NCBI GenBank assembly: GCA_046154225.1
Contig: JBJXEM010000007.1
Location: 84,961 to 148,960, forward strand
Direction of reading: 5' to 3'
Length of the DNA stretch: 64,000 nucleotides
Source: Rickettsiales bacterium
GTDB lineage: Bacteria; Pseudomonadota; Alphaproteobacteria; Rickettsiales; UBA3002
The notes under the pieces were generated by a model that worked only from the letters and a program-made list of their open reading frames with translations, was not told the DNA's origin and ran no database searches. The first letter of the stretch is position 1; every line of letters begins with the position of its first letter. The translations under genes were made by a program, and so were the position numbers. Shown piece after piece: positions 58,576 to 63,851 of this stretch.

Positions 58576-58875
58576 ATGAGCCAGAAAACAGAAAAACCCG
58601 CGCCCAGCCTCGACTCGCTCGACAAAAAATTGTCGGCGTTGAAAGGCTCGCAGCCAGACAGCTCGCCGGAAGTCGCGCAGGGCAAAATGCAGTCGTACCG
58701 CGCGGCCAGCGATTTTGGTGCAGCGGCGCTCGTCGGTTGCGGCCTTGGCTTCGGCGTCGATTACGTCGCGCACACTTCGCCCTTCGGCCTCATCATTGGG
58801 CTGCTGGTGGGCGTCGCCGCCGGTTTCCGCATGATGATGCGCACCATGAATTCCTCCACCAGCGATAAGGCATAA
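58576..58875 (+). CDS. atpI: AtpZ/AtpI family protein
   Basis: GLGFGVDY...TSPFGLIIGLLVG..AG; first gene of the F0 operon. Confidence 0.85.
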   Translation: MSQKTEKPAPSLDSLDKKLSALKGSQPDSSPEVAQGKMQSYRAASDFGAAALVGCGLGFGVDYVAHTSPFGLIIGLLVGVAAGFRMMMRTMNSSTSDKA

Positions 58876-58880
58876 CCCCG

Positions 58881-59615
58881 ATGGCCATGCATAACCCGCT
58901 CGAGCAATTTGAAGTCGTGCCGCTGTTCTCGACCAACACGATGGCCGGCCCCCTCACGCTTACCAATTCGGGCCTGTTCATGCTGGTGGCTGTGCTGGCC
59001 GTTACGCTGTTTTTCCTTGCCGCCACGCGCAAAAAAGCGCTGGTGCCCGGGCGCATGCAGTCGCTCGCCGAATCGATGTATGAGTTTATCGGCACCATGA
59101 TTGACGAAAATATCGGTACTAAAGGCCGGAAATATTTCCCGTTCGTGCTCACGCTGTTTCTGTTCATCCTGTTTATGAACCTCATCGGCATGGTGCCCTA
59201 CAGCTTCACGCCCACCAGCCATATTATCGTCACTTTCGGCATGTCGCTGGTGGTGTTTCTGGGCGTGACGCTGGTTGCGATCATCACGCAAGGGCCGGTG
59301 AAGTTTTTCAAGCATTTCATCCCCGACGGGATGCCCGTCGTGCTCATCCCCATCATCCTGCTCATCGAGCTTGTCTCGTACATGGCGCGGCCTTTTAGCT
59401 TGGCCATTCGTTTGGCCGCCAACATGATCGCGGGGCACACACTGTTAAAAGTCATCGCCGGGTTCGTGATTCCGCTGGGTATCTTCGGCATTGCGCCGCT
59501 GCTGTTTTCCACCTTCATGATCGGCTTCGAGATCTTTATCGCCATCTTGCAGGCTTACGTATTCGCGCTGTTATCCACGATCTATCTTAGTGAGGCACTC
59601 GCGGAACATCATTAA
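58881..59615 (+). CDS. atpB: ATP synthase F0 subunit a
   Basis: PLEQF, VPGRMQS, GMVPYSFT.TS, RPFSLAIRLAANM.AGH, LQAYVF. Confidence 0.97.
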   Translation: MAMHNPLEQFEVVPLFSTNTMAGPLTLTNSGLFMLVAVLAVTLFFLAATRKKALVPGRMQSLAESMYEFIGTMIDENIGTKGRKYFPFVLTLFLFILFMNLIGMVPYSFTPTSHIIVTFGMSLVVFLGVTLVAIITQGPVKFFKHFIPDGMPVVLIPIILLIELVSYMARPFSLAIRLAANMIAGHTLLKVIAGFVIPLGIFGIAPLLFSTFMIGFEIFIAILQAYVFALLSTIYLSEALAEHH

Positions 59616-59624
59616 CCTCTATTT

Positions 59625-59693
59625 TGTCATTCCCGCGAAGGCGGGAATCTCCTAAAAGCCACAAAGGAGATTCCCGCCTTCGCGGGAATGACA
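59625..59693. repeat. Palindromic element family A, short subtype, inside the atp operon
   Basis: TGTCATTCCCGCGAAGGCGGGAATCTCC...GGAGATTCCCGCCTTCGCGGGAATGACA. Confidence 0.92.
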
Positions 59694-59732
59694 AAGCTGA
59701 AACGAATAACCTACAACCAACTGGAGACGACA

Positions 59733-59960
59733 ATGGAAATGGAAGCACTAAAATTCATCGGCATGGGCCTTGTATCGCTGGGTATGCTGGGCGCCGCTAT
59801 CGGCGTGGGCATTATTTTTGGCAACGCCGCGCAAGGCATTGCCCGCAACCCCGCCGCCGAAGGTAAAGTATTCAAGGTCGCCATTCTCGGCGCCGCATTG
59901 TCGGAGTTCATGGGGCTGCTCAGCTTCGTTCTCGGCATCCTCATCATGATCAAAATCTAA
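59733..59960 (+). CDS. atpE: ATP synthase F0 subunit c
   Basis: GAAIGVG, ARNP, GAALSE (proton-carrying Glu); GGAG RBS. Confidence 0.96.
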   Translation: MEMEALKFIGMGLVSLGMLGAAIGVGIIFGNAAQGIARNPAAEGKVFKVAILGAALSEFMGLLSFVLGILIMIKI

Positions 59961-59962
59961 TC

Positions 59963-60466
59963 ATGACCATGCTACTTCGTCGCACCACTGCGCTTGCACT
60001 GCTCAGCACCCCGGCTTTCGCCGAGGGGCTGCCGCAGATGGACGCCACCTGGTTTGGAAACCAGCTGTTCTGGCTCGCCGTCAGCTTCGTCCTGCTCTAC
60101 GCAGTGGTGGTGCGGGTGATCATGCCGGGTGTGGGCGGCGTGCTCGACACGCGCGCCAAAGCCATCGCCGACGCGATCGCCGAAGCCGAGGAAGCCAAAC
60201 GTGCCGCCGCGCAAACCCGTGGCGATGTCGAGGTGGCGGGCAATTCGGCCCGGGCGCAGGCGTCGGAATTACTGGCGAAAGCGCAAGCCGAAGCCAGCCG
60301 CGAGGCGAGTGACGCCAGCCATAAACTGGCCCACGATCTGGCACGTAAAACCGAACAGGCCGAAGTACGTTTGGCCGAAGCACTGAAAAAAGCCTCGGCA
60401 CAGGTCGATCTGGCCGTGGCCGACCTCAGCGCGGCCATCACCGCACGTTTGTTAGCTAAAGGGTAG
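59963..60466 (+). CDS. ATP synthase F0 subunit b'
   Basis: GLPQMD.TWF.NQLFWL, TM helix then Ala-rich coiled coil. Confidence 0.9.
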   Translation: MTMLLRRTTALALLSTPAFAEGLPQMDATWFGNQLFWLAVSFVLLYAVVVRVIMPGVGGVLDTRAKAIADAIAEAEEAKRAAAQTRGDVEVAGNSARAQASELLAKAQAEASREASDASHKLAHDLARKTEQAEVRLAEALKKASAQVDLAVADLSAAITARLLAKG

Positions 60467-60470
60467 CACC

Positions 60471-61049
60471 ATGGAACATGCAAGCGACATCGCCGAGCCA
60501 GCGCATGAACTGTGGTATCACAGCCCCGAAGTCTGGGTCGCGGTTGCGTTTGTGCTCTTCATTGGTGTGGCACTGAAATGGGTGGTGCCGCCCATCGTAC
60601 GCGGACTCGATGCACGTGGGCAAGTCATTCGCGACCAGCTCGAGCAGGCAAGTAAACTGCGCGCTGAAGCGGCGGCACTGCTCGCCAGCTACCAGCAGCA
60701 GCAGGAAACCAAACTGCGCGAGGCCGAAGCCATTCTGGACGCCGCCCGTAAGGACGCCGTGCACCTACGCGCGCGCGCCGCCGAGGATTTGAAACAAACC
60801 CTCGCCCGCCGTATGGCACAGGCGGAGGAAAAAATCGCCCGCGCTGAGGCCACCGCACTCGCCCAATTGCGCCGCCAGATGGTGGAACAAGCCAGCACCC
60901 GCACGCATGCCGCACTGGTCGCGCAGGTCACCAGTGAAGCCACCGATCCAGCCCTCGCCCATGCGCTTGCTGCCATCGAAGCACAGCTTGGCGCCCCTGC
61001 TGAGGGTGTGGCAACCCCGGCCACCCCCCGTCGCGCTAAAACGGCGTAA
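60471..61049 (+). CDS. atpF: ATP synthase F0 subunit b
   Basis: WVAVAFVLF, LD.RG..IR.QL..A..LR.EA, AE.KI..AE. Confidence 0.9.
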   Translation: MEHASDIAEPAHELWYHSPEVWVAVAFVLFIGVALKWVVPPIVRGLDARGQVIRDQLEQASKLRAEAAALLASYQQQQETKLREAEAILDAARKDAVHLRARAAEDLKQTLARRMAQAEEKIARAEATALAQLRRQMVEQASTRTHAALVAQVTSEATDPALAHALAAIEAQLGAPAEGVATPATPRRAKTA

Positions 61050-61191
61050 GCCTTTTAGAACTGCGTTATGAACGCCTATAGGCTTGCTACAAAGTGGCCC
61101 ATAGCCACTAGCACTTCACCAATATGTTAACAAAGTCGCATAAAAATTAACTTTTGCTTGCCTTCCGTTGCGGTTGATTTAGCAATGACGC

Positions 61192-61995
61192 ATGGGGTGG
61201 CGTAGTATCATGGCGATGGGAGTGTTGGCGACGCTGTCTGTCGCGCCCGTGGCATGGGCGGGTGCGTGGCTGCAACCCAAGGGCCAGGGCCTGTTTGTCG
61301 CCCAAGCCGGGTTTTACAGCACCGACCGTTTTTACGCCGCCGACGGCCAGGAGCAGCCGCAATCGACATTCAGCAAAATCGAACTGACGCCCTATGTGGA
61401 ATACGGCCTGCTTGAAAACCTCACCATCGGCGGCACGGCCTATATTCAAGACGCATTCCAAAGCGCCGACAGCAATTTAGGCATCGCCGACCCACAAATT
61501 TTCGCCCGCAGCGAATTATGGGGCGACGACACCCAGCATCTCAGCCTGCAACCGCTCATCAAATTCACCAGCGCCTTCGAACACACCGCGCCACCCCGCG
61601 GCGGTTCGCGCTCGACGGACGTTGAACTTTCACTGCTGTATGGTCGCAGTTTCAATCTCATCAGCCCGCGCGATTACCTTGACATGCGCAGCGGCTACCG
61701 CCTGCGTGCCAACCGTCTGGGCGACCAGTTTTTGACCGATATTGCGCTAGGGCTTGGCGTCGGCGAACATTGGCTCATCGTGCCTGCCCTGCGTCAGGTC
61801 GTGTCACTCGGCACCGTCGGCGGAGCGTTCAGCGAAAGCGGCGACCTCGATTATGATTTAACTAAAGTAGAACTCACGAGCCTCTACCAGCTCGATGACG
61901 CGCACAGCGTGCAGCTTAGCCTCGCCAGCCACGTAGCGGGTGCGCAAACCGGTGCGGGCTACAGCATCACCGCAGGCTTTGGGGAGACGTTCTGA
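61192..61995 (+). CDS. Predicted outer-membrane beta-barrel protein
   Basis: Signal peptide ending AWA, GAWLQPKGQG, alternating amphipathic strands, C-terminal Phe; TGATG-coupled to the GT. Confidence 0.65.
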   Translation: MGWRSIMAMGVLATLSVAPVAWAGAWLQPKGQGLFVAQAGFYSTDRFYAADGQEQPQSTFSKIELTPYVEYGLLENLTIGGTAYIQDAFQSADSNLGIADPQIFARSELWGDDTQHLSLQPLIKFTSAFEHTAPPRGGSRSTDVELSLLYGRSFNLISPRDYLDMRSGYRLRANRLGDQFLTDIALGLGVGEHWLIVPALRQVVSLGTVGGAFSESGDLDYDLTKVELTSLYQLDDAHSVQLSLASHVAGAQTGAGYSITAGFGETF

Positions 61996-63851
61996 TGGCG
62001 ACCACATCCGCACTGCGCATTGGCGATATCCTCGTGGCACAAGGCAGCATCGAGCGCGAATTGCTCGAGGCCAATGCCGGCGCCGCACGTGGCAAACTGG
62101 GAGAATATTTGCAAGCCCACGGCATCATCGACAGCCGTGCATTGCCGCGCGCGCTGGCCACCCAGCAAGGCGTACCATTCCTCGATTTAACCACCCGCGC
62201 GCCGGATGCCGCGTTATTCCGCCCGCATGATTTATTGCGCTATCAGGCGCGGCAATTCGTCCCCTTCGCGGCTGATGCCGACGGCATGTTGGTGCTCGCC
62301 ACTTGCGATCCGTCGCCTGAATTACGCGTCTGGGCCCGGCGTTATTACAACAAGCCCGTGCGGCTGGTCGCGACCGGTAAGCGCGACCTTGAGCAGTATT
62401 TTGTAACCATCGCCGCCAACGCCAGCACGCGTCATGCACGGCTGGATTTACGCCGCCAAAGCCGCCACTTGGTGGCCGACCGTGTGCTCACCCGCCCCCA
62501 AATGCGCGGGTTTGCATTGCTGTTCGCGCTGTTCGCCGCCGGGTTTGTCGCCGCCCCCACTAACACCTGGTACCTGCTGCTGGTGACGTGCAACCTGTTC
62601 TACCTCACCACACTGGCCGTGAAATGGCAGCTTTACGCACAAGGCCGCGCGGCACAGTATAATGAAGATCGCCTAAACGAAAGCCTGCAGCTAAAAGCCC
62701 GCGCACTCGAGGCCGACGATTTACCTGTCTACAGCATTCTGGTGCCGCTCTACCACGAATCGGCGCAGGTGATGGGCAGGCTGATTACGTCGCTCAACGC
62801 GCTCGATTACCCGCGCGAAAAGCTCGACATTAAACTCATCGTCGAAGCCGACGATGTTGCCACCCACGACGCGCTGAAAGCCCTGCGCCCACCGGCGACG
62901 ATGGAAATCATCGCCGTGCCGCCCTCGCACCCGCGCACCAAGCCGAAAGCCTGCAACGTGGCGCTTCAGCGCATTCGCGGCGAGTATTTGGTGATCTACG
63001 ATGCCGAAGACGCCCCCGCGCCCGACCAGCTGAAACTAGCCGTTGCGCTGTTTGCGCAATCGTCGCCGCAAACCGCGTGCCTGCAGGCACCGCTTAACTA
63101 TTATAACCGCAACGAAAATGTGCTGACGCAGCTGTTCGCCATCGAATACAGCGCGCTGTTCCGCCTCATGCTGCCCGCTTTGTCGCGCATGAATTTGCCG
63201 GTGCCCCTCGGCGGCACTAGCAACCATTTGCGCGTCGCAATCCTGCGCGATGCGGGCGGCTGGGACGCGTTCAACGTGACGGAAGACGCCGACCTCGGCA
63301 TTCGCCTGAGTTATCTGGGCTATCGCACCCGCATCCTGCCATCGCTGACGCTCGAGGAAGCTCCCATTACCCTCGGCGTGTGGATGCGCCAGCGGTCGCG
63401 CTGGATTAAGGGCTACATACAGACATGGCTGGTGTACATGCGCGACGTGCCCGAGCTAAAACGCCGCCTGGGCGGCCCTGCCTATTATGGCTTCCAGTTT
63501 TTCGTCGGCGCACCGGCCCTCACCTTCCTGCTGGCGCCGTTATTCTGGGGTATTTTCATCCTGTCGTCGGTAGGGCTATTGCCCATGCACCTGCCGCCCG
63601 CGATGCTGGGCCTCTGCCTTGTCAGTTTTGCTGGTGGTATTCTCAGCCATTGGCTGTATGCGCGTGCAGTCACCGCCCGCGAAGGCTGGACTGACATGCG
63701 TGCAGCGCTGCTTCTATACCCACTCTATTGGCTGCTACACTCGGTGGCGGCGGCGCGGGCGCTGTGGCAGCTGGCTCGCCGCCCGCATTTCTGGGAAAAA
63801 ACCTGCCATGGCCTGAGTGGCTTGCAAAACCCAGAGAAAAATGGCGGTTGA
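61995..63851 (+). CDS. MshEN-domain processive GT2 glycosyltransferase (NfrB-like architecture)
   Basis: [10 protein letters not shown] and [13 protein letters not shown] MshEN half-motifs; LVPLYHE, TKPKACN, YDAED, GGTSNH, TEDADL, QRSRW; C-terminal TMs and WEKT.HG. Confidence 0.85.

Follow-up and report, generated by a model that had tools for sequence, protein, structure and literature searches.

A candidate two-gene Xag-type exopolysaccharide system in a small-genome member of the Rickettsiales

Introduction

Can one polysaccharide synthase and one outer-membrane barrel, encoded by two overlapping genes, form a surface-glycan system under the control of cyclic di-GMP (c-di-GMP)? The question is raised by positions 61192-63851 of a 64,000-nucleotide stretch of DNA from a Rickettsiales bacterium of lineage UBA3002 (the window, here meaning the whole stretch, positions 84,961 to 148,960 of contig JBJXEM010000007.1, assembly GCA_046154225.1), whose genome measures 2.18 Mb and is 98.5% complete. 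Two co-oriented open reading frames (ORFs) occupy this segment, the first (61192-61995) encoding a secreted beta-barrel and the second (61995-63851) a family 2 glycosyltransferase (GT2) with an N-terminal MshEN domain; all features described below lie on the plus strand. We consider it rather probable that the two genes form a synthase-dependent exopolysaccharide system of the XagA/XagB type, in which MshEN gates the synthase and the barrel is its partner.

Genetic evidence ties Xag-type systems to Xanthomonas biofilms, and comparative genomics ties them to the stalks of iron oxidisers. In Xanthomonas oryzae pv. oryzicola (Xoc), xagABCD was up-regulated in a high-c-di-GMP mutant without the HD-GYP phosphodiesterase RpfG, and the raised biofilm formation needed xagA and xagB (PMC3609779). 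A receptor for c-di-GMP among the products of xagABC was predicted by Roelofs et al. (PMC4624772). MshEN-glycosyltransferase fusions were already noted when MshEN was defined (PMC5013675), and the MshEN-first architecture is catalogued, very widespread and no special feature of this locus (PMC5013675; PMC8250860). In the literature searched, no polymer, structure or c-di-GMP binding was reported for Xag-type systems.

Results and Discussion

A candidate Xag-type pair

A profile of the barrel family found a metagenome protein named 'protein XagA' by the Joint Genome Institute (JGI) with E 7e-53 (28% identity and E 1e-17 in the pairwise comparison). The gene overlapping this xagA encodes JGI's 'glycosyltransferase XagB', which aligns with the window synthase over 534 residues at 42% identity (E 3e-112). 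What characterises XagA (KEGG K20326) was found for the barrel in its homology to the JGI XagA, whose gene overlaps xagB, and what characterises XagB (KEGG K20327) was found for the synthase in its homology to the JGI XagB together with an N-terminal T2SSE_N/MshEN domain, transmembrane helices and a processive GT2. Because both proteins are homologous to the JGI-named XagA and XagB, the pair is not a new kind of system. The JGI pair itself (L090, 6377-8798) includes a synthase of 547 residues that lacks the four-helix motif region and keeps the MshEN_C part, with the barrel also kept, so the sensor module is dispensable in some lineages.

A xagABCD operon was not found, as no XagC-like, XagD or BcsB-like protein turned up anywhere in the genome and the neighbours of the pair are atp genes and rpmJ. 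The BcsB family (PF03170) was not detected in the 98.5%-complete genome, and tblastn of the whole genome found none of the BcsB-like partners that accompany homologous synthases elsewhere, nor their multi-pass partner (equated with XagC by position only), the 305-residue membrane protein of Rhizomicrobium or a second synthase of this type. Since the BcsB-like and multi-pass partners were not found, the system appears to be reduced to two genes. An earlier sequence-only reading of this segment had proposed a minimal synthase-porin system with no tetratricopeptide repeat (TPR), deacetylase or precursor gene adjacent; the description is fair, because the genome is without BcsB/XagC-type partners and the neighbouring genes, atpI-B-E-F'-F and rpmJ, include no TPR, deacetylase, sugar-precursor or scaffold gene. 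That reading had also taken E. coli NfrB/NfrA as the model relative, a place better filled by Xanthomonas XagB/XagA, given the profile match to the JGI XagA and the 42% identity to XagB. Read from its sequence, the pair is a reduced two-gene variant of the known Xag system, which is genetically defined and biochemically unexplored.

A processive synthase and a 12-stranded barrel

The xagB-like gene (61995-63851) encodes a predicted 618-residue inner-membrane MshEN-GT2 processive synthase, as assigned from the ORF, Pfam, an AlphaFold (AF2) model and Foldseek. Pfam returned Glyco_trans_2_3 (E 4e-24) and Glyco_tranf_2_3 (E 1e-23), with three GT2 models at residues ~246-531. The GT2 catalytic domain (residues ~243-481; 62721-63437), delimited by Pfam, by alignment with BcsA and by columns invariant in 98 homologues, contains the segment PRTKPKACN (62931-62957) followed by DAED (residues 336-339; 63000-63011), TED (429-431; 63279-63287) and QRSRW (466-470; 63390-63404), which align to FDADH, TED and QRGRW of BcsA, respectively. 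The full processive set named in the sequence-only reading is present, and with D, DxD, TED, QxxRW and flanking transmembrane helices the protein shows the features of the processive membrane GT2 class (BcsA, hyaluronan synthase (HAS), PgaC and NodC).

The AF2 model of the synthase (98 homologues as input; predicted local distance difference test (pLDDT) 93.7, predicted template-modelling score 0.91) displays, in order, a four-helix bundle with an alpha/beta subdomain, two transmembrane helices, a GT-A domain, an interface helix after QRSRW and three to four C-terminal helices. Its best Foldseek matches were the hyaluronan synthases Xl-HAS1 and Cv-HAS together with BcsA, at E ~1e-14. The two N-terminal transmembrane helices (residues ~167-212; 62493-62630) were placed from hydrophobic stretches and from model helices 167-186 and 188-237. 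The C-terminal transmembrane helices (residues 494-595; 63474-63779; model helices 494-525, 535-563 and 569-595) presumably form the polymer channel, as suggested by the match to the HAS/BcsA fold. Beyond them, 12 residues from the protein end, lies the motif PH(F/Y)WEKTxHG (residues 597-606; 63783-63812), in which P597, H598, W600, K602, T603, H605 and G606 are invariant in 98 synthase homologues and which is kept in the JGI XagB protein. We considered the idea that WEKTxHG is the equivalent of a gating loop; the last helices are of ambiguous topology, and the motif is left unexplained. As the genome encodes a galU-like gene, wecB and two NDP-sugar dehydrogenase genes, no polymer sugar can be excluded or inferred from its sugar-precursor genes.

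The xagA-like gene (61192-61995) encodes the 267-residue precursor of a predicted 12-stranded outer-membrane beta-barrel (ORF, AF2 model, Foldseek). A Sec signal peptide (residues 1-23; 61192-61260) has its predicted cleavage site after A21-W22-A23 (VAWA/GAWLQ). In the family alignment the mature N-terminus GAWLQ is nearly invariant, with A21, A23, G24, A25, W26 and Q28 invariant or at least 90% conserved, and residues 3-21 are helical in the model at low confidence. The AF2 model (44 homologues as input; pLDDT 91.9) displays 12 strands, and the C-terminal Phe is invariant in the 44 homologues. An AxA signal site, 12 strands of alternating hydropathy and a terminal Phe are the marks of an outer-membrane barrel, and the structure prediction agrees with the secreted beta-barrel ending in Phe that the sequence-only reading had described. 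We hold the fold and enzyme-class assignments for both proteins with high confidence.

The nearest solved folds to the barrel in Foldseek were the COG4313 channel Pput2725 (4rl8; TM-score 0.73) and FapF (TM-score ~0.63), with OmpG, which has 14 strands, and autotransporter barrels ranking lower. Model scans of the window protein returned no Pfam or NCBIfam family, and 24 diverse members of the barrel family gave stray weak matches only (DUF2490 in two, E 0.0015; OMP_b-brl in one). This family, for which Pfam has no model, comprises 2,855 clusters at 50% identity (E <= 1e-3), with 619 at E <= 1e-30. Of the 42 strand positions conserved at 90% or more, 28 are predicted to face the lumen when strand faces are assigned from the family-wide alternation of hydropathy. 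Many of these 28 are charged, including K62, E64, E70, D100, R106, K124, D143, E145, D164, R170, D183, K225 and E227. Strong conservation extends to two long loops predicted to be external, PRGGSxSTD and FSENGDLDYD.

A divergent MshEN domain

A profile built on residues 1-150 of the synthase matched the solved MshEN domains of PilF (2.8e-30), PilB (2.7e-14) and MshE (5HTL; 3.9e-12), and Pfam placed MshEN on residues 59-136 above its cut-off (E 3.5e-7). The MshEN_N four-helix region (62016-62165; from profile and model), with two 24-residue motifs at residues 8-31 and 34-57, forms a putative divergent c-di-GMP site and is modelled as helices 9-15, 21-28, 35-41 and 49-58. The MshEN_C subdomain follows at residues ~59-140 (62169-62414; Pfam match 59-136, with the PilB/PilF/MshE alignment reaching ~136). 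Homology to MshEN is borne by these profile and Pfam matches together with the modelled four helices and alpha/beta subdomain. Among 113 full-length homologues R8, G10 and G36 are nearly invariant and L/I9, L13, L24, L35, L39, L50, L54 and Q57 are conserved; the window synthase keeps the RIG and KLG cores with both Gly residues, L24, L50, L54 and Q57.

Its genome encodes a PleD-like REC-REC-GGEEF protein, a second GGEEF protein and an EAL protein. On these sequence grounds c-di-GMP binding by the MshEN domain is likely but not assured, and since the site is a divergent variant, gating of the synthase by c-di-GMP is probable, at a modest strength and by analogy with characterised enzymes, rather than established. 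Elsewhere in the same genome, a PilB/GspE-type ATPase (C20:137533-139545) has a first MshEN motif of canonical form (RIGEKLMSLGLISKDQLEIALREQ) and a spacer of 5 residues; from its sequence, this ATPase is likely to be a second c-di-GMP receptor and offers an internal contrast to the compact variant of the synthase.

Conservation and joint loss of the two genes

The two genes meet in the sequence TGATG (61993-61997; TTC-TGATG-GCG), in which stop and start codons share one base at 61995, and this overlap suggests translational coupling. Profile searches for barrel and synthase were run across 201 genomes of the same GTDB order, with counts that ignore kinship. The barrel was found in 105 genomes and the synthase in 133; of the 100 genomes with both, 85 had the barrel immediately upstream of the synthase and in the same orientation. 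The usual setting was between the atp F0 genes and rpmJ, and most of the 85 pairs had an intergenic gap of 3-60 bp. The sequence-only reading had expected the genes to be conserved together, and this survey upholds it.

A synthase was counted as MshEN-bearing where the profile match started at residue 10 or earlier, as it did in 83 genomes. The barrel was present in 81 of them, GGDEF genes in 82 and at least two GGDEF genes in 79, compared to only eight of the 49 genomes with an MshEN-less synthase in which two or more GGDEF genes occurred. Where the synthase stood without a barrel (33 genomes), the profile match began after the MshEN motif region in 31, and several of these genes were pseudogenes. 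The counts of joint presence and loss match what a functional MshEN/c-di-GMP/barrel module predicts, and the pair is a near-core feature of this order of 1-2.7-Mb genomes. A functional link between the barrel and synthase genes is, in our judgement, very likely. A synthase frame with multiple stops was observed in genomes of 1.1-1.3 Mb (G026, G100, G136, G097) and 1.6-1.9 Mb (G073, G087, G082); the barrel was absent from all of these except G073 and G087, where a weak match remained (E ~1e-7), a pattern suggesting that reduced lineages, which may be host-associated, are still losing the system.

The barrel lay directly upstream of the synthase in all close relatives with enough flanking sequence and in distant alphaproteobacterial loci whose synthase is 37-46% identical. 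In Rhizomicrobium/Micropepsales the order was flipped, with the barrel just downstream of the synthase and the genes still neighbours (L028, L041, L054, L057). There the core pair carried a different accessory set: a 305-residue multi-pass protein was encoded between the two genes in L028, and a TetR_N + Sel1-repeat membrane protein adjoined the barrel (several genes further downstream in L041). Full-length synthase homologues (35-46% identical) were also found in Mucilaginibacter, Actinomycetota, Chloroflexota, cyanobacteria and other alphaproteobacteria, and a BcsB-like protein was encoded beside the homologous synthase in Mucilaginibacter, cyanobacteria, Chloroflexota, Solirhodobacter and Croceicoccus. 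These BcsB-like partners were 650-700 residues long with a C-terminal transmembrane anchor (Pfam BcsB, E 3e-8 to 3e-19). A 518-residue multi-pass protein without a Pfam family accompanied them in Mucilaginibacter, Chloroflexota and cyanobacteria and was not found at the cyanobacterial locus L033 or at the alphaproteobacterial loci L019 and L022, and the Mucilaginibacter synthase loci additionally encoded a histidine kinase.

A model for the locus and its alternatives

In the system that we propose, the 618-residue protein would be anchored in the inner membrane, and its MshEN and GT2 domains would lie on the cytoplasmic side. This enzyme would polymerise a nucleotide-sugar processively and, like hyaluronan and cellulose synthases, pass the growing chain through a transmembrane channel of its own. 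The N-terminal MshEN domain would bind c-di-GMP made by the two GGEEF cyclases of the genome, and binding would release or boost catalysis, by analogy with PilZ-BcsA and MshEN-NfrB. The 267-residue protein would leave the cytoplasm through Sec and form, in the outer membrane, a 12-stranded barrel whose conserved polar lumen would pass the chain across the membrane, or which would hold the chain at the surface. No BcsB-like, XagC/D-like or TPR partner and no periplasmic scaffold would take part. We infer the binding of and activation by c-di-GMP, the barrel as exit pore and the surface location of the product; the barrel as exit pore for the polymer is a reading that we favour only slightly, by analogy. 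A role of the glycan as phage receptor or adhesin would be pure conjecture. Tentatively, and with more doubt than trust, the locus might represent two-protein secretion across the whole envelope, in which a HAS-like XagB gated by a compact MshEN works with a TPR-less 12-strand XagA, and the barrel belongs to an unrecognised class of outer-membrane glycan exporter. Such a pair would be smaller than any other synthase-dependent system known from a diderm.

The closest likeness is to xagABC(D) of Xanthomonas, where a small secreted XagA-type protein is encoded beside an XagB-type GT2, and the JGI XagB shares the C-terminal WEKTxHG; here, however, there are two genes only, set between atp F0 genes and rpmJ in an alphaproteobacterial order of small genomes. 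The sfz/sfb and xag-like clusters of iron-oxidising Zeta- and Betaproteobacteria encode a BcsB-like Sfz1 and an XagB-like Sfz2, and the latter, which joins the N-terminal domain of a type II secretion ATPase (T2SS-E; IPR007831) to a GT2 with DxD, TED and QxxRW, has the same architecture as the window synthase (PMC8250860). Clusters of this kind in Gram-negative iron oxidisers, described by Kato et al. as bcsB-xagB-xagC-xagD, have a BcsB-like subunit and no xagA (PMC4643136), whereas at the window locus the barrel is present and BcsB is not. The loci with BcsB-like partners noted above in Mucilaginibacter, cyanobacteria, Chloroflexota, Solirhodobacter and Croceicoccus share the layout of these clusters.

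E. coli NfrB-NfrA-YbcH, the receptor system for the N4 glycan, is alike in fusing a GT2 with DxD, TED and QxxRW to MshEN and in encoding the outer-membrane partner in an overlapping gene, and binding of c-di-GMP to MshEN is required for NfrB function (PMC8669469, PMC8669472). The N-terminus of the window synthase weakly matched the MshEN part of NfrB models (PRK11234, E 2.8e-5; PRK15489, E 3.2e-8). In NfrB, however, the order is GT-transmembrane-MshEN, the reverse of the window synthase with its N-terminal MshEN; NfrA combines a TPR protein with a 16-stranded barrel, whereas the window partner has 12 strands and no TPR; and YbcH and the WecB linkage of the Nfr system are absent at the window locus. 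The GT domain was also closer to BcsA models (E 1e-21) than to the NfrB-type PRK14716 (E 1.7e-8). Membership of the NfrB/NfrA system was rejected on the reversed domain order, the 12-strand TPR-less barrel, the missing third gene and NfrB equivalog scores far below their cut-offs. BcsA-BcsB-BcsC and the class I hyaluronan synthases share with the window synthase a membrane-integrated processive GT2 of the same catalytic motifs and fold. BcsA, however, is c-di-GMP-gated by an appended C-terminal PilZ domain and the window synthase has its MshEN at the N-terminus; the window locus has neither BcsB nor BcsC, and its synthase has fewer transmembrane helices (two plus three to four, HAS-like). A BcsAB-type system was likewise set aside, since the genome is without BcsB, even though BcsB-like partners accompany homologous synthases in other phyla. 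Finally, the COG4313 channel Pput2725 (4rl8) and FapF are 12-stranded barrels of the same size as the window barrel, but with ~12% sequence identity, no family-level sequence match and different genomic partners.

Several observations, gathered here, weigh against the proposed system. The Xag homology rests on JGI names and orthology assignment of metagenome proteins, not on Xanthomonas sequences, and, as the survey counts ignore phylogeny, genome reduction could have stripped GGDEF genes, MshEN and barrel together. The MshEN domain itself departs from the published consensus (PMC5013675). Motif 1 ends in A31 (usually Ala across the family) and not in Gln, where Q32 of MshE was reported important (PMC5013675), and has A28 at its second Leu position (Ala or Leu in the family). 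The spacer between the motifs counts 2 residues, three fewer than the consensus 5, with a 3-5-residue deletion in the PilF/PilB/MshE alignments; motif 2 starts with K34 in place of Arg and holds Arg or Gln (Q40 in the window protein) at a core hydrophobic position. The tandem motif quoted in the sequence-only reading does stand at residues 8-31 and 34-57, but neither of its strings fits the relaxed pattern of Wang et al. 2016 (fitted by 17 of 98 relatives at motif 1 and by five of 98 at motif 2), and the NCBIfam model c-di-GMP_motif (NF053729) scored 24.4 on residues 8-57 against a cut-off of 38. The same synthase-barrel system might on these grounds carry an MshEN that no longer binds c-di-GMP and acts as a structural or docking module, like the N-domain of XpsE/GspE, or as another sensor, with control being transcriptional or expression constitutive. 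XpsE offers a precedent for such lost binding, with eight substitutions listed (PMC5013675), and the 42%-identical JGI XagB is still paired with a barrel after its four-helix motif region has gone. However, the 113 homologues show almost no variation at either Gly or in the RLG cores, L35, L50, L54 and Q57 of motif 2 are conserved, the changes are far milder than the eight of XpsE, and MshEN is strongly associated with GGDEF gene number across the order. With any residue admitted at position 7 and a broader choice at positions 10, 11 and 24, motif 2 passes in 79 of 98 relatives. We regard a non-binding MshEN as unlikely, while taking it seriously.

The barrel raises its own difficulties. Its nearest fold, COG4313, has been linked to uptake of hydrophobic compounds and is no known glycan exporter, and the glycan porin AlgE is a barrel of 18 strands. 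With 12 strands and no periplasmic or other extra domain, the window barrel lacks the features of PgaA/BcsC/AlgE/NfrA-type porins (16-18 strands, usually with TPR), none of which appeared among its best 50 fold matches. The outer-membrane polysaccharide porins PgaA, BcsC and NfrA have 16 strands, usually with a periplasmic TPR part (PMC8669472). The glycosyltransferase product, as a periplasmic glucan, glycolipid or short oligosaccharide, might then bypass the barrel, which would serve as a Wzi-like anchor or lectin, an outer-membrane enzyme or an uptake channel. The bcsB-xagBCD clusters without xagA indicate that XagB-type synthases can work without XagA (PMC4643136), and the conserved predicted loops PRGGSxSTD and FSENGDLDYD would suit a binding or catalytic site. 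Such a bypass is improbable, however, given the full processive signature in a channel-forming HAS/BcsA fold, the same Xoc biofilm phenotype of xagA and xagB deletions (PMC3609779) and a polar conserved lumen that fits a hydrophilic solute. FapF, among the fold matches, is a 12-stranded barrel that passes a polymer. The 12-stranded barrels NanC and KdgM pass oligosaccharides and also count against a bypass. As for the adjacency being incidental, with two unrelated housekeeping genes lodged between atp and rpmJ, the whole block UDG-slt-rnhB-dciA-dsbA-atp-pair-rpmJ is syntenic in relatives (at 52-58% synthase identity), so the conserved neighbourhood alone could reflect vertical inheritance. But the pair also stands together outside this block, in opposite order, in Rhizomicrobium/Micropepsales and on the JGI XagB-XagA contig, its start and stop codons overlap, and loss of the barrel goes together with loss of MshEN. 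Chance adjacency, which we find scarcely credible, was rejected on the conserved pairing in relatives and in the order-wide survey.

If the proposed Xag-type system is right, these uncultured small-genome alphaproteobacteria would have a candidate attachment factor in a surface glycan that is nearly universal among them and controlled by a second messenger. Xag-type systems are widespread, as seen in the size of the barrel family and in MshEN-GT2 synthases across many phyla, and the two-gene form without accessory subunits is the simplest version for reconstitution, which could reveal scaffold-free glycan export through 12 strands, gating of a GT2 by MshEN (as by PilZ in BcsA) and the identity of the polymer. 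The locus contributes a variant and not a new principle.

Genomic surroundings

Downstream of the pair lies rpmJ, and past the end of the window (C7:149650-151220) follow a GIY-YIG-like small ORF, a stand-alone receiver protein of 123 residues and a HigB/HigA-like pair, a stretch that may be a small integrated island. As a possible third partner, the receiver gene 1.4 kb downstream was rejected because it lies beyond rpmJ, in the apparent HigBA-like island, and is not adjacent. Upstream, the F0 ATP-synthase genes atpI-B-E-F'-F (58576-61049) are separated from the barrel gene by a gap of 142 bp (61050-61191; read from the sequence), and the atpF-barrel adjacency recurs in relatives. A consensus scan of this gap, itself uninformative, found no promoter-like or terminator-like site; the pair may have its own promoter there or be reached by read-through from the atp F0 operon. 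A shared transcript for a surface-glycan system and the F0 genes of ATP synthase would be odd. The pair is nearly always joined to the 3' end of atpI-B-E-F'-F and followed by rpmJ, even where the synthase is only 37-46% identical.

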